Shown: positions 149 to 29,134 of the stretch, in pieces | Numbering within the stretch: the stretch's first letter is position 1 | Layout of the letters: the number at the start of each line of letters is the position of its first letter | Origin: Acidobacteriota bacterium | GTDB taxonomy: Bacteria; Acidobacteriota; Vicinamibacteria; Vicinamibacterales; SCN-69-37 | Direction of reading: 5' to 3' | Length of the DNA: 64,000 nucleotides | Assembly (NCBI GenBank): GCA_947467605.1 | Contig: CANIII010000017.1 | Coordinates: 28,052 to 92,051 of the forward strand | Notes under the pieces: model-generated | The model's database searches: none | What the model was told of the DNA's origin: nothing | The model's input: the letters and a program-made list of their open reading frames with translations, nothing else | Position numbers and translations under genes: made by a program

Positions 149-162
149 AAGGGCACAGACAC

Positions 163-1854: not shown

Positions 1855-1863
1855 AAAACACAA

Positions 1864-1971: not shown

Positions 1972-1987
1972 CTCTTCCGGAGAACCC

Positions 1988-13118: not shown

Positions 13119-13246
13119 TGGTGTTCTTCTCCAAGAACAGCAACAGTTGGATGACTGGCCGAGAGATTAATTGTGGTTAATGTGAGAGAAGAGTCAATGG
13201 AAGATCCAAAACCGAACGTCCGTTGTGTATTGAGTGCGTGTGGCGA

Positions 13247-13262
13247 TGGCAGCGGGCTTGCA
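13247..13262 (+). promoter_or_regulatory. Candidate sigma-54 (-24/-12) promoter element
   Basis: TGGCAGCGGGCTTGCA against the consensus TGGCAC-N5-TTGCW. GG and GC are correctly spaced, with one mismatch in the hexamer. It lies only about 18 nt upstream of ATG 13280, which leaves a very short leader, hence the low confidence. Confidence 0.25.
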
Positions 13263-13279
13263 ATTCAAGAGTCAAACTA

Positions 13280-15439: not shown

Positions 15440-16104
15440 TCGACGATCCCGGCAAACTCCTTGGCCTGCTGTTCCGGAGCCATCCCTGGCATGGCGTGCC
15501 GATTGGCGCGCGCGCGCCCGAAGTGGTGACGTGCTTCATCGAGATCGTGCCGACCGACCGCGTGAAATACGAGATCGACAAGGCGACCGGCTACCTCAAG
15601 GTCGATCGGCCCCAGCTCTATTCGAATATTTGTCCGGCGCCCTATGGTTTTCTGCCCCAGACCTACTGCGGTCCGCGCGTCGGCGCGTTGTCGGCCGAAC
15701 GCCTGCACCGCTCGGGTCTCAACGGCGACGGCGATCCGCTCGACGTCTGCGTGCTGACGCAGACCGCGATCACGCACAGCGACTTGCTGCTGCAGGCGCG
15801 GCCCATCGGCGGCATTCGTTTGCTGGATGGCAACGAGGCTGACGACAAGATCATCGCGGTGCTCGAAGGCGACGGCCTGTATGGCGGCTGGACCGACCTC
15901 GACTTTATCCCGAAGGCCGTGATCAATCGACTCGTGCACTACTTCGAAACCTACAAGCTCGCACCCGGTGCCACCACCAAGCCGATCGAGATCACGCATC
16001 TCTTCGGCCGCGACGAAGCCCACACCGTCATTCAAGCCGCGCGCGACGACTACTCCGACAAGTTCGGCCCACTACAAAAACAGCTGGCCGACGCGCTCGC
16101 GTAG
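15436..16104 (+). CDS. ppa: Family I inorganic pyrophosphatase
   Basis: Matching blocks are HPWHG, EIVPTDRVKYEID, YGFLPQT, GDGDPLDVCVL and DDKIIAV. The ATG overlaps the upstream stop (ATGA at 15436-15439), and the SD aggagg lies inside the upstream gene's end. Confidence 0.85.
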   Translation: MIDDPGKLLGLLFRSHPWHGVPIGARAPEVVTCFIEIVPTDRVKYEIDKATGYLKVDRPQLYSNICPAPYGFLPQTYCGPRVGALSAERLHRSGLNGDGDPLDVCVLTQTAITHSDLLLQARPIGGIRLLDGNEADDKIIAVLEGDGLYGGWTDLDFIPKAVINRLVHYFETYKLAPGATTKPIEITHLFGRDEAHTVIQAARDDYSDKFGPLQKQLADALA

Positions 16105-16117
16105 ATTTCCGATGGAG

Positions 16118-16139
16118 CCCCGGACCTTCAGGTCCGGGG
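16118..16139. terminator. Short GC hairpin between convergent ppa and rlmA
   Basis: ccccggacc-ttca-ggtccgggg has 9-bp arms. It overlaps the rlmA stop codon (16128-16130). Confidence 0.45.
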
Positions 16140-16973
16140 TCGAAACACCGTCACGTACGCATCCACCGTCAGCTCGAGCCGCGGCAGTTGCGCGAGCGCA
16201 TCCCGTGTTGCGCGCCCGATGTGCCAGTAGAACGGCGTCATCGCGAGCAAGTGCTGGATCTCTGCCTGTGATTCGAGCGCAATCGGATAGCGCACGCGCG
16301 TGGATGACGCCACGTTGAATAGCGTGTCGTCGGCCATGAGTGCCGGTGTCTTCGGATGTGGCTTCACCGAGCTGTAGATGATGATGCGCAGCGCATCAAG
16401 GTGGTCCGGCCCCGGTGTCACCGTGATCAGCGCGCCATCAGCGCGGACGACGCGCTTGGCGTCAGCGGCGTCGATCGGCGCAAATACCGTGAGCGCGACA
16501 TCGAGTGATTGTGGTTGGAACGGGCTGTTGTGCAGACTCGCCACGACCCAATGGATGTCTCGGCCGTGTGTGGACGCCATCTTGATGCCCGGTCGCGAGA
16601 TGTCGACGCCATAGAACGTGGCGGGCGTCTCGGGCCCTTGCGCACATGCCGCCCGCGCTCGCGCCGTAAAGAAGCCTTCGCCGCAGCCGAGGTCGGCGAC
16701 GTGCGCGTCGTTGCGGCCCGCGACGACGGCGGCCACCGCATCGGAGGCGGCATCGGACATCTGGTCGTAGAAACCGCGCTCGAGGAAGGCGCGTCGACTC
16801 TGCAGCATCGCCGCGCTGTCGCCCGGTTCGGCCGACTGCTTCTTGTTCGAGAGCAACAGATTCAGGTAGCCGCTCCGTGCGCGATCAAAGGCGTGTGAGG
16901 CGGGGCAGGTCGCTGCGGTCGGTTGGAGCGTCAGCGCGGCGCCGCACACGGGGCACGCCAGAACGGTTGTCAT
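16128..16973 (-). CDS. rlmA: 23S rRNA (guanine745-N1)-methyltransferase
   Basis: It has an N-terminal zinc-finger-like CPVCGAAL..CPASHAFD, then GYLNLL and GDSAAMLQSRRAFLERGFY, then the SAM motif DLGCGEGFF. This resembles E. coli RlmA as I remember it. Confidence 0.8.
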   Translation of the reverse strand: MTTVLACPVCGAALTLQPTAATCPASHAFDRARSGYLNLLLSNKKQSAEPGDSAAMLQSRRAFLERGFYDQMSDAASDAVAAVVAGRNDAHVADLGCGEGFFTARARAACAQGPETPATFYGVDISRPGIKMASTHGRDIHWVVASLHNSPFQPQSLDVALTVFAPIDAADAKRVVRADGALITVTPGPDHLDALRIIIYSSVKPHPKTPALMADDTLFNVASSTRVRYPIALESQAEIQHLLAMTPFYWHIGRATRDALAQLPRLELTVDAYVTVFRPRT

Positions 16974-17039
16974 GGACCCAGTGTAGCGCTGTGTAACAAT
17001 CGACGCGATTTGTCAGCAGTTCACCGTGACGTACGGCGC

Positions 17040-18020
17040 GTGTGTCTTCTGGGTACCGGTGTGGCCTCACGACCGGCGATGCTGACCAGTGCTGACATCG
17101 ATCGACGTCTGGGTCTGGCGATCGGCACCGTAGAGCGACGCACCGGCGTCGTGACGCGCCATGAAGAAACCGCGCGCACCGCAGCGGCGCTCGGTGCCGA
17201 TGCGGCGCGCCAGGCGCTCGCTGCGGCCGGGCGTGATCTCAACGACATCGACTGCGTCGTGGCCGCCAATGGCACGCCGGATCAGGCGATGCCGAGTAAT
17301 GCTGCGCTGCTGATGCATGAGCTGGGATGTGGCGAGCGCGCGACGGCGGGCTTCGACGTGAATGCCAGTTGCCTCGGCTTCCTGACGGCCCTCGATACCT
17401 TGTCGTATCTGATCGCCGCCGGCCGCTACCGCCACGTGTTGATCGTGTCGTCCGACATCGCGTCATGCGGTCTCGACTGGAGCCACCTCGATGCCAGCGG
17501 CATCTTCGGTGATGGTGCCGCCGCTGCCGTCGTTGGCGCCGCGAACGGCTCGACCTCCGCGATCCTGTCGTCGTCGTTGCACACCTTCAGCGATGGCGCG
17601 CATTTGTGCGAGATCAAGGGCGGCGGCTCGCGGTTTCATCCGAGCCGCATCAGCGAGCCGTTTGCGCCACTGGCGACATTCCAGATGGACGGCAAGGCGG
17701 TCTTTCGCATGGTCGGCACCCGATTGCCCGGCTTTGTCGACGACCTTGTGACGGCCGCGGGACTGCGCATCGGTGACCTCGCCGTCGTCGTGCCGCATCA
17801 GGCGAGTGCGCATGCGCTCCGATATACGCGCCGCCGGTTGCGGATCAGAACCTCGCAGATGATCGACATCTTCGCGGATCACGGCAATCAAGTGTCCGCG
17901 TCGATGCCGTCGGCGCTGCACGCCGCCATCGCCGACGGCCGACTGCGGCGTGGTGACCATGCGCTCCTCATCGGCAGTGGTGCCGGCGTGAGCCTCGGCG
18001 GCATGGTGCTGTGCTACTGA
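17040..18020 (+). CDS. 3-oxoacyl-ACP synthase III (KAS III / FabH-like condensing enzyme)
   Basis: The GTG at 17040 gives VCLLGTGVASRPAMLTSADIDRRLG, a typical FabH N-terminus, and avoids overlap with rlmA. The Cys/His/Asn contexts are DVNASCLGF, VVPHQASAH and DHGNQVSAS. Confidence 0.75.
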   Translation: MCLLGTGVASRPAMLTSADIDRRLGLAIGTVERRTGVVTRHEETARTAAALGADAARQALAAAGRDLNDIDCVVAANGTPDQAMPSNAALLMHELGCGERATAGFDVNASCLGFLTALDTLSYLIAAGRYRHVLIVSSDIASCGLDWSHLDASGIFGDGAAAAVVGAANGSTSAILSSSLHTFSDGAHLCEIKGGGSRFHPSRISEPFAPLATFQMDGKAVFRMVGTRLPGFVDDLVTAAGLRIGDLAVVVPHQASAHALRYTRRRLRIRTSQMIDIFADHGNQVSASMPSALHAAIADGRLRRGDHALLIGSGAGVSLGGMVLCY

Positions 18021-18883
18021 CGCCACCGCGGGTGGAGGTGCACTGGCTGCGAGTCGGTCACTGCCGCCATCCGGAGTGGGTCACGCTGCGCGGTGGTCGC
18101 TGGCAGCCTGTGGATTTTCCAGCGCATTGCGCGCTCATCATTCATCCGTCCGTTGGGCCCATCCTCTACGACACGGGGTACGCGGACCATTTCGCCGCAG
18201 AGACGCGGACACTGCCGAACGCACTCTATCGATGGGTCACGCCCGTGCAACTGCCGGCGGAGCAGCAGTTGCGATCGCAACTGCGAGCGCGTGGCGTGCG
18301 GATGGAAGACGTCGCTCGCGTGCTGGTGTCACACCTGCACGCAGATCACGTGGCCGGCCTTCGCGATCTGCCGAAGGCACGGTTCACCGCGCTGCGCGCC
18401 GATGTGGTGGAGAACATCGGTCGGCGGGGCATCGGCGCCGTGCGGCGAGGCTTCCTCCCCGGTTTGCTCCCTGACGACTTCGATCGGCGTCTCGACATCG
18501 CCGATGAACGCAACGTCGTGGATCTGGGCCGCTCGTGGTCGCCATTCACACGCGGGTTCGACCTCCTTGGCGACGGCTCCATCATCGGCGTGCCGCTGCC
18601 TGGGCACAGCCCGGCGCAACTCGGCCTCGTGATGTGGAACACGGATGGGCAGCCCGTCATGCTCGTGGCTGACGCGTGCTGGTCCACACGCGCTCTGAAT
18701 GAGAATCGCCTGCCGTCGATCATCGCGCGGCCGATGATGCATAACTGGTCACGGTACCGCACGACGTTGACGGACCTGCATACCCTGCGGCGCGCACAAC
18801 CTGACCTGCAGATGTTGCCGTCTCACTGCACTGAAGCGCACGCCGCCTTTCACGCCCGTCGACACGAGCCGACCCGTGAGTGA
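18011..18883 (+). CDS. MBL-fold metallo-hydrolase
   Basis: It has the HxHxDH motif (VSHLHADHVAG) and a later PLPGHSP His. The GTG start overlaps the KAS III stop by 10 nt. Confidence 0.75.
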   Translation: MLLTPPRVEVHWLRVGHCRHPEWVTLRGGRWQPVDFPAHCALIIHPSVGPILYDTGYADHFAAETRTLPNALYRWVTPVQLPAEQQLRSQLRARGVRMEDVARVLVSHLHADHVAGLRDLPKARFTALRADVVENIGRRGIGAVRRGFLPGLLPDDFDRRLDIADERNVVDLGRSWSPFTRGFDLLGDGSIIGVPLPGHSPAQLGLVMWNTDGQPVMLVADACWSTRALNENRLPSIIARPMMHNWSRYRTTLTDLHTLRRAQPDLQMLPSHCTEAHAAFHARRHEPTRE

Positions 18884-20222
18884 GCGTGCGAGAGTCGTCG
18901 GAGCGTTCGCGGGCGCGCGATGGGGACGCCCGTGTCCGACGCGCGACGACCTGTTGCGCCATCAGCAGGGGCGCATCCGTCGATTCCTTCGGGCCGAGCT
19001 ACCGCTCGCGAAGTTCTATCGTGATCTGCGCGCCAGGCGCCTCGAACAACTGCCCATCGTTGACAAGGCGACCATCGTCGCCGACTTCGCCGGCTTCAAC
19101 AGCCGAGGTATCACCCTCGATGCCGCGATGCGGGTGGCCGTGGCGGCCGAGCGGAGCCGGGACTTCGCGCCGACGATCGATGGCCTGACGGTCGGTCTGT
19201 CGAGCGGTACGTCTGGCACGCGCAGCGTGTTTCTGGTCAGCGCGGATGAGCGCCAGCGCTGGGCTGGCCTCGTACTCGCGCGCTTGCTGTCGTCAGCGTC
19301 GCTGCGTCAGCTCGTGACGCCATGGCAGCGACCGCTGCGGTTGGCGTTCTTCCTGCGCGCCAACAGCAACCTCTACGCAACCGTCGCGAGTCGTCGCATC
19401 GCGTTCGCGTTTCATGACCTCCTCGTGCCGCTGGAACAACACATCGAGCAGCTGAACGCGACGCCTCCCGACATTCTCGTTGCACCACCCACGGTGCTGC
19501 ATCGCCTGGCCCTGGCGGCGATTGACGGCTCCCTGAAGATCGCTCCGCGACAGATCGTCTCCGTTGCTGAAGTCATCGAGCCCGACGATCGCATCGTGAT
19601 CGGCCGCGCGTTCACGGCGTCGATTCAGGAGGTGTATCAGGCTACCGAAGGATTCCTCGCGGCGACATGTGCGGCCGGCCGACTGCACCTCAATGAAGAG
19701 TTCCTGCACATCGAGTCGGAGTGGCTTGACGACTCGATCGACGGCCATCGTCGATTCCGGCCGATCATCACCGACTTCACGCGCACGACCCAGTTGGTCG
19801 TGCGCTATCGGCTCGACGATGTGCTTCGAGAAGCGCAGGGGCCGTGCCCGTGCGGTCGCGTGACACGCAGCCTCGCTGCCGTGGAAGGCCGAGCCGACGA
19901 TGTGCTGTGGTGCCGCGTGGCTGGTGGCGCGACGCTGCGGCCGGTGTTCCCCGACACGATCCGCCGCGCGATGGCTCTGGCAGGGACGTCGCTTGCGGAC
20001 TATCGCATCGAGCAGCGAGGGCGCGCCTGGGATGTGCAGCTCTGCTGCGATGTGTCTGTTGTGGTTGACGTTCAGCAGGCCGTGCGACACGAACTGGCCG
20101 CGCTCGCCGACGGCCTGTCACTACGACGGCCCGATGTGCAATTCGCGTTGTGGACGACGACATCGGCGATCGACAAGCGTCGTCGAATCCGCTGCGTCGA
20201 GCGACCGGTGGAGGGCGCGTGA
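18876..20222 (+). CDS. F390-synthetase-related / PaaK-like adenylate-forming enzyme
   Basis: It has a P-loop-like LSSGTSGTRSVFLVS, and its size and layout fit the phenylacetate-CoA ligase / coenzyme F390 synthetase superfamily. The GTG start overlaps the MBL stop by 8 nt. Confidence 0.6.
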   Translation: MSERARVVGAFAGARWGRPCPTRDDLLRHQQGRIRRFLRAELPLAKFYRDLRARRLEQLPIVDKATIVADFAGFNSRGITLDAAMRVAVAAERSRDFAPTIDGLTVGLSSGTSGTRSVFLVSADERQRWAGLVLARLLSSASLRQLVTPWQRPLRLAFFLRANSNLYATVASRRIAFAFHDLLVPLEQHIEQLNATPPDILVAPPTVLHRLALAAIDGSLKIAPRQIVSVAEVIEPDDRIVIGRAFTASIQEVYQATEGFLAATCAAGRLHLNEEFLHIESEWLDDSIDGHRRFRPIITDFTRTTQLVVRYRLDDVLREAQGPCPCGRVTRSLAAVEGRADDVLWCRVAGGATLRPVFPDTIRRAMALAGTSLADYRIEQRGRAWDVQLCCDVSVVVDVQQAVRHELAALADGLSLRRPDVQFALWTTTSAIDKRRRIRCVERPVEGA

Positions 20223-21172
20223 GGATTCTCGTCACCGGCGCATCGGGATTTGTCGGCGGTCGGCTGAAGGAGCGCGCGCGCCGACGCCCGGCACTCGTGA
20301 TGCACGGTGTCGGTCGACGTCGGCTCAGCATCGAACACTACTCGTCGCGGGATCTGTCGCAACCGTTCGACCTGCCGTTTGTGCCGGACGTCGTGATTCA
20401 CGCCGCCGCACGCGCCACACCGTGGGCGCCATTAGCGGCGTATCAACGAGACAACGTCGAGGCCACGCGACAGGTCATTGCCTTCTGTAAACGGCATGGG
20501 CTGCCCCGGTTGGTCTATGTGTCGTCGAGCTCGGTGTACTACCGGCCCGAGCACCAACTCGGCATGCGCGAGGATTCACCGATCGGTCCCACATTCGCCA
20601 ATGACTATGCCGCGACGAAATATGCCGGTGAGTTGCTGGTGCGCGCCTATCCCGGCGAATCGGTGATCGCCCGTCCGCGCGCGGTGTTTGGTCCGGGCGA
20701 CACGGTGCTGTTTCCGCGGATTCTGGCGGCGGCGAAGGCCGGCCGGCTGCCGCTGTTCACGACGACGGGGCCGCCGCCGATCGGCGACCTGATCTACGTG
20801 GATACGCTGGCGGACTACCTGCTCGAGATTGCGACGAAGACACAGGTTGACGATGCCTACAACCTGACCAACAACGAGCCCGTGGTCATGCAGGACTTTC
20901 TGCTCGACGTCTTCGCGCGTCTCGGTTTGCCGGCGCCGAGGCGTCGTGTGTCGGTGCGCACCGCGATGGCGGTGGCTGGTGCAACAGAAGCCGCCTATCG
21001 CTGGCTGCGCCTCGCCGGTGAGCCGCCGATCACGCGGTTTGGTGTGGGCGTGTTCGCGTGGTCGAAGACGTTCGATGTGTCTCGGGCCCTCGCAGATCTT
21101 GGGCCGCCGTCCGTGTCACTCACGGACGGCGTTGAGGCCTTTGTACGGTGGCAACGGAGCCAGCCCACGTGA
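20219..21172 (+). CDS. NAD(P)-dependent epimerase/dehydratase-family SDR
   Basis: The GTG at 20219 (GTGA overlap) gives VRILVTGASGFVGGRL, a Rossmann fold. The catalytic YxxxK is YAATK. Confidence 0.8.
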   Translation: MRILVTGASGFVGGRLKERARRRPALVMHGVGRRRLSIEHYSSRDLSQPFDLPFVPDVVIHAAARATPWAPLAAYQRDNVEATRQVIAFCKRHGLPRLVYVSSSSVYYRPEHQLGMREDSPIGPTFANDYAATKYAGELLVRAYPGESVIARPRAVFGPGDTVLFPRILAAAKAGRLPLFTTTGPPPIGDLIYVDTLADYLLEIATKTQVDDAYNLTNNEPVVMQDFLLDVFARLGLPAPRRRVSVRTAMAVAGATEAAYRWLRLAGEPPITRFGVGVFAWSKTFDVSRALADLGPPSVSLTDGVEAFVRWQRSQPT

Positions 21173-22308
21173 TGATGGTCTGGCTCGCCGCGATCTACCT
21201 GGGACTGCTCGTGATGAAGGCCTGGCTCGCCGTTCGCGCAGCGCACAGTGAGACACCGCGAGCCACCGCTGATCTCTCGACGGTAGGAATCGTTCAGCCG
21301 ATTCTGTCTGGCGATCCGCGCCTCCGCGACACGCTGGCCGCCAACCTCGCGACCATCCCCACAGCACTCTTTGTGTGGCTGATTGATGACGACGATCCCG
21401 TTGCGCGCGACGTGTGTGAGGCGCTGCGCAGAGCACATCCGCGTGTGCGCATCGAGATCGTGTCGTTGCCTCAGGCGCCTGAAGGTGAGAACCCGAAGCT
21501 CTTCAAACTCGAGCGCGCGCGCGGCATCGTGGGCTCGCACATCTTCATGGTGGTTGACGATGACACTCGGATGCCGGCGTCGAGTGCCGAGGCCATCGTG
21601 AGCAGTCTTGCGCGTGGAGAGGTCACGACGGCGCTACCGGGTTGTCTCGATGATGGTCGCTGGCCTTCGGCACTGCTGGCCGAGTTCGTCAACAACAACG
21701 CGGCACTCACATACCTGCCACTGCTGACCGTGTGCCCGCCGGTCACGATCAACGGCATGGCCTACGCGATGCGATCCGAAACGATCGAACGCATCGGCGG
21801 ATTCGGGCCCATCATGCGATCGATCACTGACGACCTCGCGGTAGCCGAGCAGGTGCTCAAGCGCGGAGGCCGGATCTGCCAGACCGCGGCACCGGTGTGG
21901 GTCGAGACGACCGTCGTAGACGTCGGTCATTACCTCCGACAGATGCACCGCTGGTATCTCTTTGCGCTGTTGCTGTGTCTGCGACAGCCTGTGCGGATGC
22001 AGGCGCTGATCACGGCCCTGAACGTCACGCCGGCATTGCTGTTGTGGAGCATCGCCGTGGCCACAATCCTCGAGCCGTCAACGGCCGCGATCGTTGTGGC
22101 GCTGATGGTGCTCCTGACGCGATCGATCGCGCTGATGTATCTCCAGCGCCGCATCTACGGCCGCGCCATCCACCGCCCGCTGCTCAGCATCGTCAGTGAA
22201 CTCCTGCAGCCGCTGCACCTGCTGCATGCGGCGAGTCAGCGTGCGATCACCTGGCGACGTCGGCGCTATCGCGTCCACGCCGATGGATCATTCGAGGTGC
22301 GCTCGTGA
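21169..22308 (+). CDS. Membrane-bound family-2 glycosyltransferase (ceramide-glucosyltransferase/HpnI-like, GT21-like)
   Basis: It has an N-terminal TM helix (MMVWLAAIYLGLLVM), a VVDDD DxD motif, the (Q/R)xxRW motif RQMHRW, and C-terminal TM helices. The start is GTG 21169 (GTGA overlap) or ATG 21172. Confidence 0.7.
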   Translation: MMMVWLAAIYLGLLVMKAWLAVRAAHSETPRATADLSTVGIVQPILSGDPRLRDTLAANLATIPTALFVWLIDDDDPVARDVCEALRRAHPRVRIEIVSLPQAPEGENPKLFKLERARGIVGSHIFMVVDDDTRMPASSAEAIVSSLARGEVTTALPGCLDDGRWPSALLAEFVNNNAALTYLPLLTVCPPVTINGMAYAMRSETIERIGGFGPIMRSITDDLAVAEQVLKRGGRICQTAAPVWVETTVVDVGHYLRQMHRWYLFALLLCLRQPVRMQALITALNVTPALLLWSIAVATILEPSTAAIVVALMVLLTRSIALMYLQRRIYGRAIHRPLLSIVSELLQPLHLLHAASQRAITWRRRRYRVHADGSFEVRS

Positions 22309-22868
22309 CGCGGCAGGTGGCGTTTCTGACGGGGCAGAGTGATCCAGGGCGATGCGCCCTGAGCCCGGCGCAGTCGGCATTTCTCGACGCGCTGTCCTGG
22401 CCTGACGTGGCGAAGGTGCAGACAAACTTTCCGTACGACGACCGCACGCGGCCGTATCGCAACGTGTCGCTCGCTGCGGCCAGCTGGCACAACACGCGTC
22501 AGTATCTGAGGTCGCGCACGCCGGTGTTTGTCGACCAGCACCGGTCGTCGGTGGTCGAGATGGCGGCGCGCGCCGAGCAGACGCTCCTGCTTGCGGGCAG
22601 CTGCGGTCTTGAGTTGCTCGCGAATGTGGCGCTGCCCGACCACATCCTCCAGCGTCTGCACGTCTTCGCCTACGGCCCGGTCGCGCGTCGTGCGCCGGCC
22701 TGCGACCTGTTCGTGCTCCGCGGCCGCGGCGATTGGATTTCACGCGCGTGGTCCGGTCGCGTCGACCAGGTGGTGGACTGCGGCCACATGGACTATCTGG
22801 CGAATCCGCAAGTGTTGGCGCTCTGTCGCGAGTGGGGTGAACGCGTGATGGCGAGGGAGGTGTCGTGA
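22305..22868 (+). CDS. Hypothetical 187-aa protein, possible minimal alpha/beta-hydrolase
   Basis: LLLAGSCGLE is an AxSxG nucleophile-elbow-like motif. Later residues RGRGDWIS and VVDCGHMDY are candidate Asp/His. It has GTGA overlaps at both ends and no family I can name. Confidence 0.4.
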   Translation: MTRQVAFLTGQSDPGRCALSPAQSAFLDALSWPDVAKVQTNFPYDDRTRPYRNVSLAAASWHNTRQYLRSRTPVFVDQHRSSVVEMAARAEQTLLLAGSCGLELLANVALPDHILQRLHVFAYGPVARRAPACDLFVLRGRGDWISRAWSGRVDQVVDCGHMDYLANPQVLALCREWGERVMAREVS

Positions 22869-24109
22869 CGCGGCGACGCGTCGATCTGGTCGCGCCACCA
22901 ATGAGCGGCCACCTGCATCCCATACTCGGGATCGCCCGGAGGCTCGCAGCGGAAGTCGATGTGCGCGTCATCAGCACCGCCGGTGCGCAAGCAGAAATCG
23001 CTGCGGCTGGGCTGCAAGGGTGCGCACTCATGGCGGGGGCCGACGCGCTGATCGCGTCGATCGTCAACCCACCGAAGCCGGTCCAGAGCAACCCGCTGCG
23101 GTTGCATCGTCAGTTCACGGACAACTTGCGGTTGCTCACGAAATTCCGCGGTGAGTTGCTGGCGTTGTGGCAGGACGACCGTCCGGACCTTGTCATTGCG
23201 GATTTCGTGGTACCTGTAGCGGGAAGTGCCGCGATCGAGCGGGGGATTCCGTGGTGGACGTCTGCGCCATCGCCATGTGCGCTCGAAGCGCCGGACGGCC
23301 CGCCTGGTTATCTTGGCGGCTGGCGACCCAGATCCGGTGCGCTCTGGCGTGCGCGTGATGCCGCGGGTCGCGCGACTATTCGTCTGTTCAAGCGCGCCGT
23401 GCATCGCCGGCATCGCGCGACATTGACGGCGTTGGGCTTTCCGTCGGTGTATCGATCCGATGGATACGAAGCGATCTATTCGCCGGACTGCATTCTCGGG
23501 CTTGGGCTTGAGGCTCTGGAGTTTCCGCGCCGCGTCTCTCCAGCAGTGCGGTGGGTTGGGCCCGTGATGTACACGCCACCGTCTGACGCGCCCTCGCCGC
23601 TCTTTGTGCCGGACCGGACGCATGTGCTGGTGACGATGGGCACGCATCTTCCGTGGCGACGCCAGGCGATGTGGCAGGCGGTGCGGCACGCCGCGCGGGA
23701 GATGCCGACGATCGAGTTTCATGTCAGCGACGGAGATCGGCACAGTGATCGCTGCGAGGTCGACGGCAATGTGCGACGACTGGGCTTTGTGTCGTACGCG
23801 CGAGACCTGCCGAGGTATGCGGCTGTTGTGCACCATGGCGGTGCTGGCGTGATGTATCGGGCTTTGGCCGCCGGCATTCCGGCCGTGGTGGTGCCCGCCG
23901 ACTATGACCAGTTCGACAACGCGGCTCGTCTTGATGTGGCCGGGGTGGCCGTGTGGTCCGACTTGCGGAATCTTTCCCAGTCGATCGGCCGTGCATTAAC
24001 GGATCAGGCGATTCGATCCCAGTGCCGGCGCATGCAGGCACACCTCGTGGGTGTGATCTCAGCGCCCGATCGGGTGGCTGATCTCGTGTCGCGTATTTTT
24101 GAACGCTAG
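22865..24109 (+). CDS. GT1-family (MGT/UDP-glycosyltransferase-like, GT-B) glycosyltransferase
   Basis: The N-terminal acceptor-domain motif is VAPPMSGHLHPILGIARRL. The C-terminal nucleotide-sugar motif is VVHHGGAGVMYRALAAGIPAVVVPADYDQFDNA. Confidence 0.75.
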   Translation: MTRRRVDLVAPPMSGHLHPILGIARRLAAEVDVRVISTAGAQAEIAAAGLQGCALMAGADALIASIVNPPKPVQSNPLRLHRQFTDNLRLLTKFRGELLALWQDDRPDLVIADFVVPVAGSAAIERGIPWWTSAPSPCALEAPDGPPGYLGGWRPRSGALWRARDAAGRATIRLFKRAVHRRHRATLTALGFPSVYRSDGYEAIYSPDCILGLGLEALEFPRRVSPAVRWVGPVMYTPPSDAPSPLFVPDRTHVLVTMGTHLPWRRQAMWQAVRHAAREMPTIEFHVSDGDRHSDRCEVDGNVRRLGFVSYARDLPRYAAVVHHGGAGVMYRALAAGIPAVVVPADYDQFDNAARLDVAGVAVWSDLRNLSQSIGRALTDQAIRSQCRRMQAHLVGVISAPDRVADLVSRIFER

Positions 24110-24139
24110 AGTGCGTTGTTGTGCTCTAGAATCATTGAC

Positions 24140-24520
24140 ATGAAAATCCGATTGATCAAAGCCGCCCTCGCCACGGCCGCTCTTGCGGTGGTCATTCTTG
24201 GCTCCGTGAGTCTGCAGGCGGCCCAGAACCGCAAGCTCGACTTCACGCTCGTGAACAAGACCGGCTTCACGATTGCCGAAGTCTACGTCTCGCCGAGCAA
24301 AGACGACTCGTGGGGCGAAGACGTGATGGGCAAGGACGTGCTCCCGAATAACAAGAGCGTCGACATCGAATTCTCGCGCAGCGAGAAGTCGTGCAAGTGG
24401 GATCTGAAGGTTGTGGACGAAGACAAGGGCTCGATCGAGTGGACGGATCTCGACCTCTGCACCGCGAACGAGATCACGTTGAAGTACGAAGGCAAGAAGC
24501 CGACCGCTATCATCAAGTAA
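24140..24520 (+). CDS. Small secreted protein (126 aa, two Cys), unknown function
   Basis: The ATG at 24140 gives the signal peptide MKIRLIKAALATAALAVVILGSVSLQAA. The mature part has a beta-rich pattern with C..C (KSCKWDL, LDLCTANE). It lies 30 nt after the GT1 stop and is followed by a strong terminator. Confidence 0.55.
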   Translation: MKIRLIKAALATAALAVVILGSVSLQAAQNRKLDFTLVNKTGFTIAEVYVSPSKDDSWGEDVMGKDVLPNNKSVDIEFSRSEKSCKWDLKVVDEDKGSIEWTDLDLCTANEITLKYEGKKPTAIIK

Positions 24521-24542
24521 CTCATTCCGCATTCAGAACGAC

Positions 24543-24578
24543 AACGGGGCGCCCGATCTCGCGATCGGGCGCCCCGTT
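24543..24578. terminator. Bidirectional hairpin terminator
   Basis: aacggggcgcccgatc-tcgc-gatcgggcgccccgtt has 16-bp arms followed by tttctatt. It lies between convergent genes ending at 24520 and 24602. Confidence 0.65.
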
Positions 24579-24601
24579 TCTATTGTTGCGCGGACGATGC
24601 G

Positions 24602-26518
24602 CTAGTCTTCGACCACCACGATCACGCGGTCGTCGGCGCTGAACGTCACCATCGTGCTCTTGTTCGGGTTGACGCTCACGCCGTAGCTGCTGGACGCGTC
24701 GTTGCTGCCCGACGCGAGTCGATAGCCGATCGTCGCGTGCCCGCGCTGTCGCGCGGCTTCGACTACGTGCCAGAAGCTCATCGGCTGTCCGAGCTTCACG
24801 TAGTCGGCGGCCGGCTTGAGGTAGATCTCTGATCCATCTGCGTCGAAGATGTCGTCGAACAGCGCGCGCAGGTCCTTGTTCTCGGTGACCTGGGCCACGA
24901 GCAAGCTCGTGAGCCGTTCGCTGACGATGAAGTCGTCGGCTTGGGTGATTTCAGCGAGCTCGCGATTGCGCATGTCGAGCATCTCGGTGACGATCGAGTA
25001 GCGATTCGCGCCGCTGAGCGTCTCGATGTCGCGCAGGTGGAGCAGCGTGACGAGCGTGCTCGCGTCGGCCTTCTGCACATCACGATGGTCCGAGTAGGAG
25101 AGCACGATGATGTGCTGATACTGCTCAGGCTGGGTGGCTTCGAGCGTGTCGCGATCGGTCGTGTCGCCCTCGCGGTAGTCGAGCGTGGTGTTCTTCAGCA
25201 ACGCGGTGACCGCGGAGACTTCCCCGGGGATGCCGTCGCCCTCGGCGATGACGGTCAGCGATGAGCCCGGTGCGACGTAGCCGTCGAGTTCGCGCACGAT
25301 GATCTTCGCGCGTGAATTCCAACCGAGCAGCAACGTGCGTTCCGGTAGCGTGGGGGTCGGCTGTCGATGCACCAGCAGCGCGCGATCGAGTGTCGGCGCC
25401 TTGCCGTCGGCGGCGACCGACGCGAGGTCCTTCGCGACGACGATCGCCTTGTCGCCCGGCCCAAAGACTTGTGTCATCGGCGGGTTCAGTTGCACGGCGC
25501 CGTCGGCCGTCTTCATGCCGATCAGGGCGCAGCTCTCGAACGCCATCAGGGCATCGGCGAACGTGAGTCCCTTCAGCGACGACTCTTCCTTGAAGTAGAT
25601 CTCGTCGCCGCCGTAATCGAGCAGCTCCGTGTAGACGGTCGACAGCCCCGTCTGGCGGCAGGTCTGTGCGACCACACGTGCGATCACATCGCCCGTTTCG
25701 ATCAGCTGCGCCTCATCGCGACCCACGAGCCGTGCCGGCGCCATGTTCTTGCGCTCGCGAATTTCAGCGACGATGTGGAATTTCTCGGTGCGCCGCGCCG
25801 GATGGTTGGTCACCGCCAGAATGGACTTGATCACTTCTGCGTCCGGTTCGTCGCCTTCGGGCGAGAGGATCACGATCGCGCGCGCCGCGTTGAAGTTGGC
25901 GATCTTGATGTCACCGAGGTCATTCGGGATCCCGCGCCGCGTCACCACCCTCGTCGTCTTGAAATCCGCAATGCGGTCGCGGATCTCGTCGTCCATCCCG
26001 ACCTTGTCTCGGTCGGCGAGGACGGTGATGCAGTTGCGGCGATGTTCGTTGCCGAGGATCAGCTCGCTGATCACGGCGAAGATTTGCGGGCTCCAGCCGA
26101 GGATCACGATGTGATCACGTTCGGCGACGAGCGATCGGCCCTTGCGCAGTTCGTCGATCTGGTTGCCGACGCCGTTCGAGATGACGCCGATCAGCGTGCC
26201 GACGATGCAGACGCCGCCGACGGTCACGGCGAGCATCATGAAGAGATAGAAGTGCGAACCCTTGTCGCCGCCCATCGTGCCTGAGTCGAGGGTACGCATG
26301 AGGTTGTCCCACATCTGCGAGGCGAACGGCTGCGGGTCGGGGAGTCCCTTGTCGTCAGTCGGCGCTGCGCCCGTGATCGTGACGATGAGCGCAGTGAGTC
26401 CCACGAACGCGGTGGATGCCACCGCCAACCAGCCGATGAGGGCCGGCGTGCCTTTAGAAAGTGTGTTGTCGAAGGCGTAGCGGAGACGTTGACTGAGGGT
26501 AAAAGGCTGGGGAGACAT
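24602..26518 (-). CDS. CASTOR/POLLUX-related ion channel with tandem RCK/TrkA-N-like domains
   Basis: The ATG at 26518 gives MSPQPFTLSQRLRYAFDNTL. It has TM helices flanking a pore-like TLDSGTMGGD, followed by RDHIVILGWSPQ, a Rossmann-like RCK start. Confidence 0.6.
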   Translation of the reverse strand: MSPQPFTLSQRLRYAFDNTLSKGTPALIGWLAVASTAFVGLTALIVTITGAAPTDDKGLPDPQPFASQMWDNLMRTLDSGTMGGDKGSHFYLFMMLAVTVGGVCIVGTLIGVISNGVGNQIDELRKGRSLVAERDHIVILGWSPQIFAVISELILGNEHRRNCITVLADRDKVGMDDEIRDRIADFKTTRVVTRRGIPNDLGDIKIANFNAARAIVILSPEGDEPDAEVIKSILAVTNHPARRTEKFHIVAEIRERKNMAPARLVGRDEAQLIETGDVIARVVAQTCRQTGLSTVYTELLDYGGDEIYFKEESSLKGLTFADALMAFESCALIGMKTADGAVQLNPPMTQVFGPGDKAIVVAKDLASVAADGKAPTLDRALLVHRQPTPTLPERTLLLGWNSRAKIIVRELDGYVAPGSSLTVIAEGDGIPGEVSAVTALLKNTTLDYREGDTTDRDTLEATQPEQYQHIIVLSYSDHRDVQKADASTLVTLLHLRDIETLSGANRYSIVTEMLDMRNRELAEITQADDFIVSERLTSLLVAQVTENKDLRALFDDIFDADGSEIYLKPAADYVKLGQPMSFWHVVEAARQRGHATIGYRLASGSNDASSSYGVSVNPNKSTMVTFSADDRVIVVVED

Positions 26519-26672
26519 GAAGGGGTAACTGTAGCGCAGGGGCGTGACTCTGGCAGCGTGCCGAGCCGTTATGTCGTGTGATGTTATCATTCCAAGATCA
26601 TTCCGAAAGTAGTAACAAGAGTGAATAAATAGGCCTAATTCGCGACTAAATGACAGATATAATCATTCCATT

Positions 26673-27926
26673 GTGAGCGCCGTAGTCGTCGAGCTCAGTC
26701 GTGGCGCCATGGATGCTGGCGAGCTTCGGCGGAGGCTCGGCATTTCGCCCCAGACCATGATGCGGATGGTTCGAGACGCGGGTCCTGCCATCGTCAGGAT
26801 CGGTCGCGCCCGCGCAACGCGATATGGCCTGCGGCAAGCGTGGCCCAATCTGCAGACCGCGAATTTCCCCGTCTTTCGGGTTGATCGGAACGGTGCGGCC
26901 ACGGCGGCTGGCGAACTCATTACGTTGGCGGCTCGTCAGGCGTTTTGGGCAACGGCGGGAGTGGTCTCCGATGGCTTGCCGGTGGAGCTGGCGGATGCGA
27001 GGCCCGCGGGGTTCCTCGGACGGCATTTTGCCGCAACACACGGCGATCTACGATTGCCGCTGCGTTTGGAAGACTGGTCGGATCATCACATTCTGCTGGC
27101 GATGACGCGGCGAGGCGAAGATCTGCCTGGCAATTTGATTGTTGGTGCCGAGTCGTTTGCCCGTTGGCAGGTGCTCGAGAATCGCGTGGGGACGCAGGGT
27201 GATTATCCGGCGATCGCCGAGGCGACGATTGCGGGGCATCCGCCACTGTCGTCTGCGGGCGGTGAGCGGCCCAAATTTGGAGTGATGGTGAATGGTCGCC
27301 ATGTGTTGGTGAAATTCGCCGCGCGTGGAGGCCCCGACGATCGAGCGGCGAGGCGCTGGTGTGATTTGCTCGTGCTCGAAGCACTCGCGTTGAATATCGT
27401 GTCGTCGTACGGGATTTCAGCGGCAACGACCCATCTCGTTGAGGCGTCCTCGCACGTGTTTCTTGAGAGCGAACGATTTGATCGCGCGGGCGCGCGCGGG
27501 CGTGTTGCCGTTCAGAGTCTGGCTGCCGTTCACAACGATCTCGCCGACTCCTGGGCGCAGGCCGCCGTGCAACTGGGGATCACCGGGCGGCTCGCCGAGG
27601 ACGATGCGCGACGTCTGCGGTGGCTCGATGCATTTGGCGCACTCATCGCCAACACGGATCGGCATCACTACAACGTGGTGTTCTTTTCAGAGGGCCCGCG
27701 CCTGCGCCTGGCGCCCGCGTTTGATCAGGTCTCGATGTTCTATGCGCCGGCCGCGGACGGGCAGGTGCCTGTTCGCGTGTTCGCGCGGCCGCATCCGACC
27801 GCGGAGACACTGGACGTGTGGGAAGAGGCGCGGGCCGCGGCGCAAGAGTTCTGGCAGCGAGCGAGCGATGATGCTCGTCTGTCAGACGACATGCGGGCGA
27901 TTGCTGCGGACAACGTCAGGGCGTGA
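26673..27926 (+). CDS. HipA-family Ser/Thr kinase toxin homolog with fused N-terminal HTH (YjjJ/HipH-like architecture)
   Basis: The N-terminus GELRRRLGISPQTMMRMVRDAG looks like an HTH. Kinase-core elements are the GERPKFGV loop, the catalytic loop NTDRHHYN (DxHxxN) and the LAPAFD Mg-binding motif. The start is uncertain: GTG 26673 or ATG 26709. A perfect TATAAT sits at 26658-26663. Confidence 0.7.
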   Translation: MSAVVVELSRGAMDAGELRRRLGISPQTMMRMVRDAGPAIVRIGRARATRYGLRQAWPNLQTANFPVFRVDRNGAATAAGELITLAARQAFWATAGVVSDGLPVELADARPAGFLGRHFAATHGDLRLPLRLEDWSDHHILLAMTRRGEDLPGNLIVGAESFARWQVLENRVGTQGDYPAIAEATIAGHPPLSSAGGERPKFGVMVNGRHVLVKFAARGGPDDRAARRWCDLLVLEALALNIVSSYGISAATTHLVEASSHVFLESERFDRAGARGRVAVQSLAAVHNDLADSWAQAAVQLGITGRLAEDDARRLRWLDAFGALIANTDRHHYNVVFFSEGPRLRLAPAFDQVSMFYAPAADGQVPVRVFARPHPTAETLDVWEEARAAAQEFWQRASDDARLSDDMRAIAADNVRA

Positions 27927-29058: not shown

Positions 29059-29134
29059 TGGAGCCGACAACCAGACTTGAACTGGTGACCTGCTGATTAC
29101 GAATCAGCCGCTCTACCAACTGAGCTATGTCGGC
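29059..29134 (-). tRNA. tRNA-Thr (anticodon CGU), CCA encoded
   Basis: The reverse complement is GCCGACATAGCTCAGTTGGTAGAGCGGCTGATTCGTAATCAGCAGGTCACCAGTTCAAGTCTGGTTGTCGGCTCCA (76 nt). It folds as a cloverleaf: 7-bp acceptor, 4-bp D stem, 5-bp anticodon stem with loop TTCGTAA, 5-bp T stem with TTCAAGT. Confidence 0.95.

Follow-up and report, generated by a model that had tools for sequence, protein, structure and literature searches.

Seven plus-strand open reading frames (ORFs) occupy positions 17040–24109 of the window, the 64-kb stretch of acidobacterial DNA that was analyzed (Table 1), and neighboring frames overlap at each junction. The first two overlaps measure 10 nt (18011/18020) and 8 nt (18876/18883); the remaining four are GTGA overlaps at 20219, 21169, 22305 and 22865. 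These values agree with an earlier note on this DNA, which had described a translationally coupled seven-gene operon. Start codons of the operon genes are inferred. One gene caller places the GT21 start at ATG 21172, which still leaves a 1-nt overlap, and the GT1 start at ATG 22901, but at 22865 in a sibling contig. We prefer GTG 22865 because the caller itself picks it in that contig; GGAGG precedes it, and GT1 residues P11 and P12, upstream of ATG 22901, are conserved in homologues.

Table 1. The operon and neighboring features, by position in the window
Feature	Coordinates	Strand	Characteristics
Divergent intergenic region	16974..17039	.	Between RlmA-like methyltransferase gene (- strand) and first operon gene
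KAS III-type condensing enzyme, 326 aa	17040..18020	+	Pfam ACP_syn_III, ACP_syn_III_C; catalytic Cys111-His253-Asn283
Metallo-beta-lactamase-fold (MBL) hydrolase, 290 aa	18011..18883	+	Pfam Lactamase_B; complete two-metal site
F390-synthetase-related adenylate-forming enzyme, 448 aa	18876..20222	+	NCBIfam TIGR02304 member
Extended SDR ('SDRa'), 317 aa	20219..21172	+	Pfam Epimerase, 3Beta_HSD, NAD_binding_4; 3-beta-HSD/OleD/HpnA-like group
Integral-membrane GT2/GT21 glycosyltransferase, 379 aa	21169..22308	+	Pfam Glyco_transf_21 (87 bits); DDD and RxxRW motifs
Minimal alpha/beta-hydrolase, 187 aa	22305..22868	+	Nucleophile elbow A-G-S99-C-G, Asp143, His161
GT1 (GT-B fold) glycosyltransferase, 414 aa	22865..24109	+	Pfam EryCIII-like_C, UDPGT, Glyco_tran_28_C
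Small ORF, 126 aa	24140..24520	+	Signal-peptide-like N-terminal helix, hydrophobic; between GT1 and terminator
Intrinsic terminator hairpin	24543-24578	.	16-bp stem, 12 G-C pairs; also serves convergent Castor/Pollux-like channel gene

The RlmA-like methyltransferase gene has its start codon at 16973, and the intergenic region next to it is presumably the promoter region; a promoter scan covering it found no sigma-70 consensus. Downstream, the terminator to which the earlier note had pointed is the sole strong terminator-like hairpin within 13000–27000, the interval scanned for terminators, and the remaining terminator or promoter matches did not exceed shuffle expectation. The 126-aa ORF, absent from the earlier note, was also predicted as a gene on identical metagenome contigs. 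Its place after GT1 and before the terminator means that it may be co-transcribed. It has no Pfam match and no homologue among 80 related loci, and is outside the conserved cassette. No ACP, phosphopantetheinyl transferase, sugar-nucleotide or transporter gene was found in the operon or its flanks.

Enzyme families

All seven fold assignments made in the earlier note were correct, with families confirmed by Pfam and NCBIfam, and the catalytic motifs that it listed fall at residues at least 95% conserved among 25–74 homologues. For the KAS III this applies to the triad C111, H253 and N283 (63 homologues). The enzyme scores 349 bits against NCBIfam PRK07204 (cut-off 402). Its nearest solved relatives are MxnB (4v2p, 1e-56) and CorB (4yuc, 5e-54), with the best FabH behind (4e-44), and by sequence it is closer to these chain-joining ketosynthases than to any FabH. 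Starting at GTG 17040 retains an N-terminal 'LLGTG' strand that aligns with FabH. OleA and PpyS have a catalytic Glu at the position matching Met84 of this enzyme (PMC4578411).

The MBL hydrolase has metal ligands H108xH110xD112H113, H199, D221 and H272, all at least 95% conserved (74 homologues). Among curated and solved proteins, AHL or pyridoxo-lactonases match it best, with scores far under cut-offs (AttM, 73 against 390; PDB 9khq, E 2e-11). The thioesterase PqsE is not among its matches, and the enzyme is nearer to lactonases.

Of the curated models, the adenylating enzyme passes TIGR02304 (389 bits, cut-off 252). It scores only 23–27 bits against PaaK models (cut-offs 646–700) and 24 against F390 synthetase (cut-off 459), and was rejected as either enzyme proper. 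There is no match to Pfam AMP-binding (PF00501), but the AF2 model (pLDDT 87) matches PaaK-family AMP-ligases (TM about 0.65, E 1e-22). All 18 homologues compared keep SSGTSG, YQxTEG and the C-terminal Lys434 unchanged.

The top NCBIfam matches of the SDR are OleD (156 bits, cut-off 580) and HpnA (74, cut-off 368); GalE (34), RmlD (51) and dTDP-glucose dehydratase (31) score lower. G7, G10, G13, S102, Y130 and K134 are at least 95% conserved in homologues.

Both glycosyltransferases are of lipid type and one is embedded in the membrane, as the earlier note had read from the sequence. GT21 has hydrophobic segments at 1–24 and 279–326 and at least 95% conservation of D130–D132 and R261-W262. Human ceramide glucosyltransferase is its sole relative of solved structure (E 1e-8), and it scores 81 against HpnI (cut-off 310). 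GT1 has the C-terminal donor motif HHGGAG...D346xDQ and an N-terminal G15-H16; G15, H16, H324, D346 and Q349 are at least 95% conserved in homologues. Its PDB relatives are rhamnosyltransferase 9ke1 (top), CalG3, YjiC and sterol 3-beta-glucosyltransferase.

The ORF between the glycosyltransferases, an orphan that had been called hydrolase-like, has no Pfam or NCBIfam match. It belongs to a family of 651 members, and Ser99, Asp143 and His161 are invariant in 44 sequences. Its AF2 model (pLDDT 92.4) finds LipA of B. subtilis and B. pumilus and a rumen lipase by Foldseek (TM 0.5–0.57), and it is a minimal LipA-like alpha/beta-hydrolase with a Ser-Asp-His triad. GT21 precedes its gene in 45 of 47 loci, and GT1 follows it in all 43 loci with room.

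Distribution and modularity

Gene order is conserved in related loci, as a synteny check proposed in the earlier note had anticipated. Of 80 genome loci, 19 keep all seven genes in the identical order; they belong to Acidobacteriota, Gemmatimonadota, Actinomycetota (Nocardioides, Pimelobacter), Pandoraea, Prosthecobacter and Vulcanimicrobiota; a Spirochaetota locus that ends at a contig edge has the first six genes. Such an arrangement is well beyond chance, and at least six phyla share its order. The closest homologous clusters come partly from Gemmatimonadota and partly from Acidobacteriota MAGs. The genes on either side differ from locus to locus, so the cassette is self-contained.

Within the cassette, a core of KAS III, MBL and the TIGR02304 enzyme, usually with an OleD-like SDR, recurs in Proteobacteria, Firmicutes and Cyanobacteria. 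Its partner modules interchange: SDR–GT21–α/β-hydrolase–GT1, ATP-grasp–GNAT–Rieske, or PAP2–fatty-acid hydroxylase–desaturase. The core with the PAP2 module is found in 674 of 5426 complete E. coli genomes (about 12%), and also in Cellvibrio, Herbaspirillum and Chromobacterium. It is absent from E. coli K-12. Core, PAP2 module and SDR-GT21-hydrolase-GT1 are all joined in 11-gene operons of Superficieibacter sp. HKU1 and Atlantibacter hermannii, each one overlapping transcription unit with a second, different SDR inside the core; a metagenome contig has the same link.

The glycosyl module, joined to other modules at some loci, is alone at others, with SDR-GT21-hydrolase-GT1 standalone in Chania multitudinisentens and several metagenome contigs. 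Some sibling operons do not have the F390-like gene, others have neither KAS, MBL nor F390, and the minimal hydrolase is likewise dispensable. The lipid that the glycosyl module modifies may therefore have a source other than the core. SDRa is directly 5' of GT21 even at loci without KAS, MBL and F390 and has only 28–33% identity to the core SDR of other cassettes; it is co-inherited with the glycosyl module. Comparative genomics thus separates the modules and points to a modular operon rather than the single linear seven-step pathway that had been proposed.

Proposed function

We give an even chance to the operon making a glycosylated membrane lipid by means of two separable gene modules. What is demonstrated is the gene structure, the folds, the completeness of the catalytic sites, the co-inheritance of modules and, in other genomes, the pairing of the core with membrane enzymes that modify lipids. 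All the chemistry set out below is by analogy; we infer in this way every substrate, the step order and the sugar identities. A membrane lipid is the most likely scaffold, because the di-iron hydroxylases/desaturases, PAP2 and GT21 are integral-membrane enzymes acting on lipids.

Module 1 (KAS III, MBL, F390-like) is read as a cut-down TIGR02304 cassette, a widespread set of four lipid-scaffold genes. The PaaK-fold enzyme would activate a carboxylic acid with ATP, and the MxnB/CorB-like KAS III would carry out a Claisen condensation that yields a beta-keto acyl thioester and may join two chains. The lactonase-like MBL may then free the product by thioester or lactone cleavage, as PqsE does after PqsD. 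In module 2 (SDR, GT21, minimal alpha/beta-hydrolase, GT1), the OleD/3-beta-HSD-like SDR would reduce a keto group to the hydroxyl, and the ceramide-glucosyltransferase-like GT21 would attach the first sugar to the lipid at the cytoplasmic membrane face. GT1 would add a second sugar, and the LipA-like hydrolase may remove or transfer an acyl group. The nearest curated family to the SDR, that of the beta-keto-acid reductase OleD, favors this lipid reading. Against it stand the curated-family scores, far under cut-off except for TIGR02304 and the Pfam fold families, the missing ACP, phosphopantetheinyl transferase, sugar-nucleotide and transporter genes, the sibling operons without the F390-like gene or the whole core, and an MBL closer to lactonases than to PqsE.

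It is less probable, though still worth weighing, that the operon has two independent functions. The glycosyl module would glycosylate a common lipid such as diacylglycerol, which bacterial GT21 enzymes, e.g. the Agrobacterium processive glycosyltransferase, use; the core would make a separate product, either an acyl or small-molecule substituent or something unrelated. The standalone glycosyl modules fit this division. So does the SDR, whose NAD-epimerase/dehydratase type is usually found alongside glycosyltransferases; it could modify a nucleotide sugar, but it scores higher against OleD and HpnA than against GalE, RmlD and dTDP-glucose dehydratase. Most loci, moreover, fuse the glycosyl module to the core or its PAP2 module with overlapping frames. 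We give the same odds to a diffusible secondary metabolite or signal in place of a membrane lipid, for example a glycosylated alkyl-pyrone, alkyl-ketone or beta-hydroxy-acid surfactant, made by PqsA/D/E- or rhamnolipid-like logic of adenylation, KAS III condensation, MBL release, sugars from GT1 and GT2 and an alpha/beta-hydrolase acyltransferase. PqsA, PqsD and PqsE are an adenylating enzyme/KAS III/MBL trio, and RhlA, RhlB and RhlC an alpha/beta-hydrolase/GT1/GT2 set. The pyrone-forming MxnB and CorB nearest to the KAS, the rhamnosyltransferase as top solved match of GT1, and a patchy spread over phyla that suggests horizontal transfer all point the same way. However, no exporter or regulator is in or beside the cassette, the nearest relatives are not PqsE or PqsD, GT21 is integral to the membrane and its relatives have membrane lipids as substrates, and elsewhere the core is partnered by membrane desaturases, hydroxylases and PAP2.

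The known systems with which the operon had been compared fare worse, and no match to a characterised locus was found. Membership in the OleABCD, elb, PaaK and F390-synthetase systems was rejected on family scores, folds and gene content. The OleABCD enzyme set holds as an analogy: OleD is the best curated match of the SDR, the KAS is kin to chain-joining ketosynthases, and the operon has an ATP-dependent adenylating enzyme, a lactonase-like hydrolase and an alpha/beta-hydrolase. An olefin/beta-lactone pathway from non-orthologous enzymes (KAS as OleA, SDR as OleD, F390-like as OleC, MBL or alpha/beta-hydrolase as OleB) is nevertheless very unlikely. The SDR is far under the OleD cut-off, Met84 replaces the OleA/PpyS Glu, the adenylating enzyme is PaaK-fold rather than OleC-type, and the hydrolase is LipA-like, unlike OleB. 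An olefin, furthermore, has no hydroxyl for two glycosyltransferases, and some sibling operons do without the F390-like gene, some without the hydrolase. A role as an elb-type ether-lipid/plasmalogen accessory locus, or in acidobacterial membrane-spanning or ether lipids, is more doubtful again. The likeness to elb accessory genes suggested in the earlier note is not supported: that locus encodes NAD-epimerase-like ElbA and ElbE, HAD-like ElbB, ElbC of unknown function and the multidomain ElbD, but no KAS III, MBL or F390-like gene (PMC9131029), and this gene content contradicts the idea. The sole point in favor is that two elb genes are NAD-epimerase-like and the SDR here matches NAD_binding_4, the fatty-acyl reductase family. 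No ElbD-like, AGPS-like or radical-SAM gene was among the scanned ORFs of the window, and many taxa that carry the cassette, E. coli included, are not known for ether lipids. Least probable of all, to the point of being negligible, is a catabolic operon for phenylacetate or aromatic acids in which the adenylating enzyme would act as PaaK. The PaaK fold speaks for it, but family scores and genomic context refute it: TIGR02304 passes where PaaK models fail, no paa genes are nearby, and the conserved partners are KAS III, MBL and glycosyltransferases.

Of the uncharacterised glycolipid pathway proposed in that note, what looks like a lipid-glycosylation operon with conserved gene order remains, while the one linear line and the elb link fall away and OleABCD stays an analogy. 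A limited open-access full-text search found no published work on the cassette. The operon represents one form of a gene kit that is widespread but unstudied.

Operon layout and flanks

The seven plus-strand genes at 17040-24109 form a real and conserved operon whose enzyme families are all of known kinds. What is new is that they represent, within a large and modular family of lipid-type gene clusters without an assigned product, the branch that glycosylates. The gene order is KAS III, MBL hydrolase, F390-related adenylating enzyme (TIGR02304), SDR, GT21, a 187-aa hydrolase and GT1. The overlaps read from the sequence in the earlier note are exact: two neighbours share 10 nt at 18011/18020, the next two share 8 nt at 18876/18883, and the junctions at 20219, 21169, 22305 and 22865 are GTGA. 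The terminator it placed downstream is the sole strong terminator-like hairpin within 13-27 kb and has a 16-bp stem. Weak promoter and terminator matches in the same interval are not more frequent than in shuffled sequence. The coordinates of the surrounding features, and of related operons in other genomes, are collected in the table.

Start codons within the operon are predictions. For KAS III, GTG 17040 retains an N-terminal strand that aligns with FabH. For GT1, one gene caller took ATG 22901. GTG 22865 is favoured because the conserved residues P11 and P12 lie upstream of that ATG, because GGAGG precedes 22865 and because the same caller chose 22865 on a sibling contig. A sibling metagenome contig, ERZ27263780, differs over 6564 bases only by a T>G change at window position 23479, which turns the conserved Tyr205 codon of GT1 into a stop and splits the protein into products of 204 and 180 aa. 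This is either a natural population knock-out variant or a sequencing error.

Between GT1 and the terminator is a lysine-rich ORF that the earlier note overlooked. It is among the genes predicted on identical metagenome contigs, has no Pfam match and has no homologue in any related locus. Neither the operon nor its surroundings contain ACP, transporter or sugar-nucleotide genes, and no PKS genes lie close by. The window comes from an uncultured bacterium and matches a 219-kb ENA metagenome contig (ERZ27263719, k141_1202745) at 100% identity. The operon proteins have relatives of about equal closeness in Gemmatimonadota and in Acidobacteriota metagenome-assembled genomes.

Just upstream of the operon, an NDP-forming acyl-CoA synthetase gene (738 aa; CoA-binding, succinyl-CoA-ligase-like and ATP-grasp_5 domains) overlaps an inorganic pyrophosphatase gene by 4 nt. 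The pairing is odd and is not kept beside related cassettes. HipA-like kinase and NYN-domain genes lie downstream, as does the sole match of the Rfam and tRNA scans, a tRNA-Thr(CGT). A tandem PmbA/TldD-like pair, an MBOAT-family gene and a DUF4159 gene, 12-17 kb upstream, have no evident tie to the operon.

Features flanking the operon in the window, and related operons in other genomes
Feature	Sequence	Position	Strand	Remark
PmbA/TldD-like metallopeptidase pair	window	106-3688	+	tandem
MBOAT-family membrane O-acyltransferase	window	3752-5185	-	
DUF4159 protein	window	6261-7034	-	
NDP-forming acyl-CoA synthetase	window	13223-16104, with the pyrophosphatase gene	+	
RlmA-like methyltransferase gene	window			operon's upstream boundary; divergent
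126-aa lysine-rich ORF	window	24140-24520	+	signal-peptide-like N-terminus
Terminator hairpin	window	24543-24578		
Castor/Pollux-like channel gene	window			operon's downstream boundary; convergent
HipA-like kinase	window	26673-27926	+	
NYN-domain protein	window	28317-28952	-	
tRNA-Thr(CGT)	window	29059-29134	-	
E. coli seven-gene island	L083	6140-13021		
E. coli seven-gene island, Nissle 1917	L085	1501-8382		NZ_CP022686.1 4902074-4908955
Superficieibacter sp. HKU1 11-gene operon	L166	1007-11727		CP119754.1
Atlantibacter hermannii 11-gene operon	L167	1001-11760		

Enzymes of the operon

Scores are given in bits against the curated cut-off. For KAS III, MBL, SDR, GT21 and GT1, alignments of 25-74 homologues show every catalytic residue conserved in at least 95%.

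KAS III has ACP_syn_III N- and C-terminal domains (Pfam, 75 and 83 bits, above cut-offs) and a Cys-His-Asn triad (C111, H253, N283) conserved among homologues. It falls below the FabH-type models (TIGR00747, 198 versus 292; PRK09352, 220 versus 249; PRK07204, 349 versus 402), of which PRK07204 (NCBIfam) is its closest curated model. The nearest solved structures are MxnB (1e-56) and CorB (5e-54), the pyrone-forming, chain-interconnecting ketosynthases of myxopyronin and corallopyronin; FabH matches at 4e-44 or weaker. Identity to MxnB/CorB is about 40% over 314 residues. The triad and the motifs VNASCL and PHQxS are common to all three proteins, and none of them has an acidic residue where OleA and PpyS have Glu. 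MxnB and CorB have Val there, aligned with Met84 of the window enzyme, and this Val replaces the catalytic Glu of PpyS (E105) and Xanthomonas campestris OleA (E117) (PMC4578411). MxnB and CorB reside in trans-AT PKS clusters and accept ACP-bound beta-keto chains, whereas no PKS or ACP gene is found near the operon. The kinship with MxnB/CorB is one of sequence, and the joining of two chains is a possible reaction.

The MBL protein keeps an intact two-metal site. Its best relatives, AHL or pyridoxo-lactonases, score far below cut-off. It is not a quorum-quenching AHL lactonase of the AttM (72.7 versus 390) or AiiA (36.7 versus 375) type.

The adenylating enzyme is a TIGR02304 member (389.4 versus 251.9, E = 2e-116, profile positions 12-425 of 430) with no Pfam match at E < 0.01. 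Its SSGTSG and YxxTEG motifs and C-terminal catalytic Lys are invariant in 18 homologues. The AF2 model (pLDDT 87) has the two-domain PaaK-family AMP-ligase fold of adenylate-forming (ANL/PaaK-type) enzymes and matches PaaK1, BT_0428, AjiA1 and NatL2 at TM of about 0.65. The earlier note had set its proposal against a PaaK in a phenylacetate context; the enzyme reaches only 23.3 versus 646.3 on TIGR02155 and 26.9 versus 700 on NF041878, and no paa genes occur among the 37 annotated ORFs of the window. Nor is it a coenzyme F390 synthetase (FtsA; TIGR03335, 24.1 versus 458.7). A CPCG motif with C324 and C326 lies at about 19845-19853. Among aligned TIGR02304 homologues C326 and G327 are invariant and C324 is at least 90% conserved. 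This motif may form a metal or redox site that PaaK enzymes are not described as having.

The SDR is of the extended type, with OleD (NF042422) as its best curated match. GT21 is a clear family member (PF13506, 87.1 versus 21.7) with D130-D132 and R261-W262. Its hydrophobic segments, 1-24 and 279-326, make it the only operon protein with transmembrane segments, and its only solved relative is human ceramide glucosyltransferase.

The 187-aa hydrolase, an orphan in the earlier note, has a family that numbers at least 651 members. A profile search of PDB sequences with this family returned noise only (E of about 1), so a fold comparison was needed. The AF2 model (pLDDT 92) proved in Foldseek to be a minimal alpha/beta-hydrolase like Bacillus LipA (TM 0.5-0.57), with an invariant A-G-S99-C-G elbow, Asp143 and His161. 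GT1 is of the natural-product/sterol type (EryCIII-like_C, 53.1 versus 31.7; UDPGT, 28.7 versus 19.5) and falls below the MGT subfamily model (58 versus 260). It conserves G15-H16, containing the N-terminal catalytic His, and H324, D346 and Q349 in the C-terminal donor-binding domain.

Related loci and modularity

A scan with the adenylating-enzyme profile over one genome per species yielded 80 loci. The synteny on which the earlier note staked its operon is present: the seven genes recur in this order in 19 of the 80, from Thermoanaerobaculia, Holophagales and other Acidobacteriota, Gemmatimonadota, Nocardioides, Pimelobacter, Pandoraea horticolens, Prosthecobacter and Vulcanimicrobiota. A contig-truncated Spirochaetota locus has the first six genes, and two further loci lack only the hydrolase. 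No transporter, ACP or regulator neighbour is common to the seven-gene loci of the six phyla examined. Since their flanks have nothing in common, the cassette is self-contained and evidently mobile. The core genes are present on some large plasmids or chromids; the search returned no match for the glycosyl module on plasmids.

The remaining loci, about 55 of the 80, have in common only KAS III, MBL, the F390-related enzyme and a different SDR (hereafter the core SDR). The core SDR is about 30% identical to the window SDR (28% for that of E. coli) and more OleD-like, at 251 bits. In a homologous Bacillus cassette KAS passes PRK07204 at 495 bits, and on TIGR02304 its adenylating enzyme reaches 547 bits; the core with this SDR is therefore the canonical TIGR02304 cassette.

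Three sets of genes partner with the core. One is the glycosyl module found here, in which GT21, the alpha/beta-hydrolase and GT1 are preceded by the window-type SDR. Another combines an ATP-grasp protein with a FemAB-like GNAT, to which many loci add a Rieske oxygenase; its hosts are beta- and gamma-Proteobacteria, Bacillus/Paenibacillus, Cyanobacteria and a Paraburkholderia plasmid. The third comprises a PAP2 phosphatase, a fatty-acid-hydroxylase/'sterol desaturase'-family protein and an acyl-CoA desaturase, and occurs in Herbaspirillum, Chromobacterium, E. coli and, together with the ATP-grasp set, Cellvibrio. Three Cellvibrio loci (L026, L045 and L016) hold the core, ATP-grasp/GNAT/Rieske and PAP2/hydroxylase/desaturase genes in a single locus.

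In a metagenome search starting from the 187-aa hydrolase, this gene was preceded by GT21 in 45 of 47 loci and followed by GT1 in all 43 with room for it. Stand-alone window-type SDR-GT21-hydrolase-GT1 modules occur on several contigs and in Chania multitudinisentens. One metagenome contig reads PAP2-hydroxylase-desaturase, then window-type SDR-GT21-hydrolase-GT1. Seven loci (L115, L129, L144, L145, L149, L152 and L165) are six-gene sibling operons that lack the F390-related gene and pass from MBL through about 45 nt to the SDR; the adenylating step is therefore not always in cis.

In E. coli the cassette is a phylogroup-B2-type, seven-gene island between narI and tyrTV/purU with all genes overlapping: KAS III, SDR, MBL, F390-related enzyme, PAP2, 'sterol desaturase'-family protein and acyl-CoA desaturase. 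It is present in 674 of 5426 complete genomes, and its carriers include Nissle 1917 and UPEC strains. No function for the island was found in the open-access literature searched. The narI-purU site is also occupied in Superficieibacter sp. HKU1 and Atlantibacter hermannii, by an overlapping 11-gene operon that is the most complete version of the system seen: KAS, core SDR, MBL, F390-related enzyme, PAP2, hydroxylase, desaturase, window-type SDR, GT21, hydrolase, GT1. All parts are thus within one transcription unit, and since the operon holds both SDRs, these are distinct, co-existing enzymes.

Comparison with known systems

The closest catalogued system is the TIGR02304 cassette, which is annotated but uncharacterised in the open-access literature searched. 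Its E. coli proteins are 40% (KAS III), 36% (MBL) and 42% (adenylating enzyme) identical to those of the window, and both are tight overlapping operons. The canonical cassettes contain KAS III (PRK07204), an OleD-like SDR, MBL and the F390-related enzyme, whereas the window lacks the core SDR and has the order KAS-MBL-F390. The added genes differ as well: SDR-GT21-hydrolase-GT1 in the window, PAP2-hydroxylase-desaturase in E. coli and ATP-grasp-GNAT-Rieske in most other taxa. The Superficieibacter and Atlantibacter operons combine the PAP2 and glycosyl modules. The open-access full-text search found no paper describing the cassette, though a published assignment elsewhere is possible; in that literature 'F390 synthetase' appears only in table listings or methanogen papers. 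One such table lists a transposon mutant of Pseudomonas syringae pv. actinidiae IYO_RS29540, annotated 'Coenzyme F390 synthetase', among reduced-virulence mutants (PMC9823363).

Several characterised pathways resemble the operon in enzyme class. The earlier note had pointed to OleABCD, and a formal parallel does exist: both have a condenser with the thiolase fold, an SDR similar to beta-keto-acid reductases, an adenylating enzyme that uses ATP, and a hydrolase. Membership fails for each component. The SDR scores 156 versus 580 on the OleD model, KAS III has Met84 in place of the catalytic Glu of OleA, and the adenylating enzyme has the PaaK-subfamily fold and no PF00501 match, unlike OleC. OleB is of the haloalkane-dehalogenase type with about 300 aa; the window hydrolase has 187 aa and no Abhydrolase Pfam match. 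An olefin of the OleABCD kind would also offer no acceptor for two glycosyltransferases. In the PqsA/PqsD/PqsE pathway, by which Pseudomonas makes alkylquinolones, an acid is activated with ATP, a KAS III enzyme performs the condensation and an MBL-fold hydrolase releases the beta-keto acid. The window has the same three enzyme classes, but they are not orthologues. PqsD matches the window KAS III at 9e-24, more weakly than FabH and MxnB do; PqsE is not among the MBL matches at E < 0.01; and PqsA is a classical AMP-binding ligase, whereas the window enzyme has the PaaK fold. The Pqs pathway lacks glycosyltransferases and the window lacks PqsBC equivalents.

On the glycosylation side, glucosylceramide synthase and the window GT21 are both membrane GT21 enzymes with DxD and RxxRW motifs. 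HpnI of hopanoid head-group synthesis is weakly related to this GT21, and an HpnA-like SDR adjoins it, but they are not orthologues (HpnI, TIGR03472, 80.8 versus 310; HpnA, TIGR03466, 74.5 versus 367.65). Rhamnolipid synthesis by RhlA/RhlB/RhlC offers a class-level likeness, with an alpha/beta-hydrolase, a GT1 and a GT2; the window hydrolase is the 187-aa LipA-like protein and probably not RhlA-like. No sphingolipid (Spt) or hopanoid (Shc) genes stand alongside the operon, and apparently none of RhlA type. The resemblance to the Myxococcus elb ether-lipid locus, proposed in the earlier note, fails, because the published locus contains no KAS III, MBL or F390-like gene, nor glycosyltransferases (PMC9131029). 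It encodes ElbB (HAD-like), ElbC (unknown), ElbD (ligase-ACP-reductase-acyltransferase) and the epimerase-like ElbA/ElbE (PMC9131029). NAD-epimerase-family genes are the only likeness. Neither the operon and its flanks nor the large ORFs annotated across the window include an ElbD- or ElbB-type gene. A KAS III/MBL/F390 set in the Anabaena hgl (heterocyst-glycolipid) island was not borne out by the literature examined, and ladderane or aryl-polyene-type clusters with a PaaK-like ligase differ in gene set. Judged by these sequence comparisons, the operon is outside the OleABCD, elb, PaaK, F390-synthetase, HpnI/HpnA and AHL lactonase families.

Proposed pathway

Several recurrent partners of the core, namely di-iron hydroxylases, desaturases, PAP2 and the ceramide-glucosyltransferase-like GT21, act on membrane lipids. 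From this we infer that the core makes a hydrophobic, hydroxyl-bearing lipid scaffold, probably carboxyl-derived, which the window operon would glycosylate. The PaaK-fold enzyme would activate an acid with ATP, the MxnB/CorB-like KAS III would perform a Claisen condensation, MBL would cleave a thioester or lactone and the OleD-like SDR would reduce the keto group. GT21 would then attach a first sugar at the membrane and GT1 a second, and the LipA-like hydrolase would trim or transfer an acyl group. This order is modelled by analogy on PqsA/D/E, OleD, glucosylceramide synthase and rhamnolipid synthesis. Its weak points are that no ACP, transporter or sugar-nucleotide gene lies close by, that the glycosyl module exists without the core, that the F390-like gene is dispensable in the sibling operons and that the window SDR could serve sugar chemistry instead of lipid chemistry.

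A broader reading, which we consider possible but rather doubtful, is that the operon belongs, as one branch, to an unrecognised modular pathway that is very widespread and makes bacterial membrane lipids of a new class. The scaffold would be neither glycerol- nor sphingoid-based and would be made by KAS III, MBL, the F390-like enzyme and an OleD-like reductase, with plug-in modules diversifying head group and chains. Glycosylation would be the plug-in here; many Proteobacteria, Firmicutes and Cyanobacteria would use aminoacylation or ATP-grasp ligation, and E. coli B2-type strains and Cellvibrio a phosphatase/hydroxylase/desaturase set. In its condensation, keto-reduction, GT21 glycosylation, hydroxylation and desaturation, such a pathway would have converged on the way ceramides are synthesised and decorated.

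Significance

The distribution is broad and the architecture yields clear predictions. Culturable, tractable hosts (E. coli Nissle, Atlantibacter and Pimelobacter) carry homologous operons, so a knock-out with lipidomics is a direct test. If the broader reading is true, a natural comparison would be at hand between strains that have the core by itself, the core with the PAP2 module, the core with the glycosyl module, and the glycosyl module by itself. The family named in 2004 merely as 'F390 synthetase-related' would gain a function, and the 651-member orphan hydrolase family a role. The operon's genes are carried by abundant soil taxa (Acidobacteriota, Gemmatimonadota, Nocardioides), with sister versions in about 12% of complete E. 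coli genomes, and their product would be a class of lipid or glycolipid that present-day maps of bacterial membranes lack.
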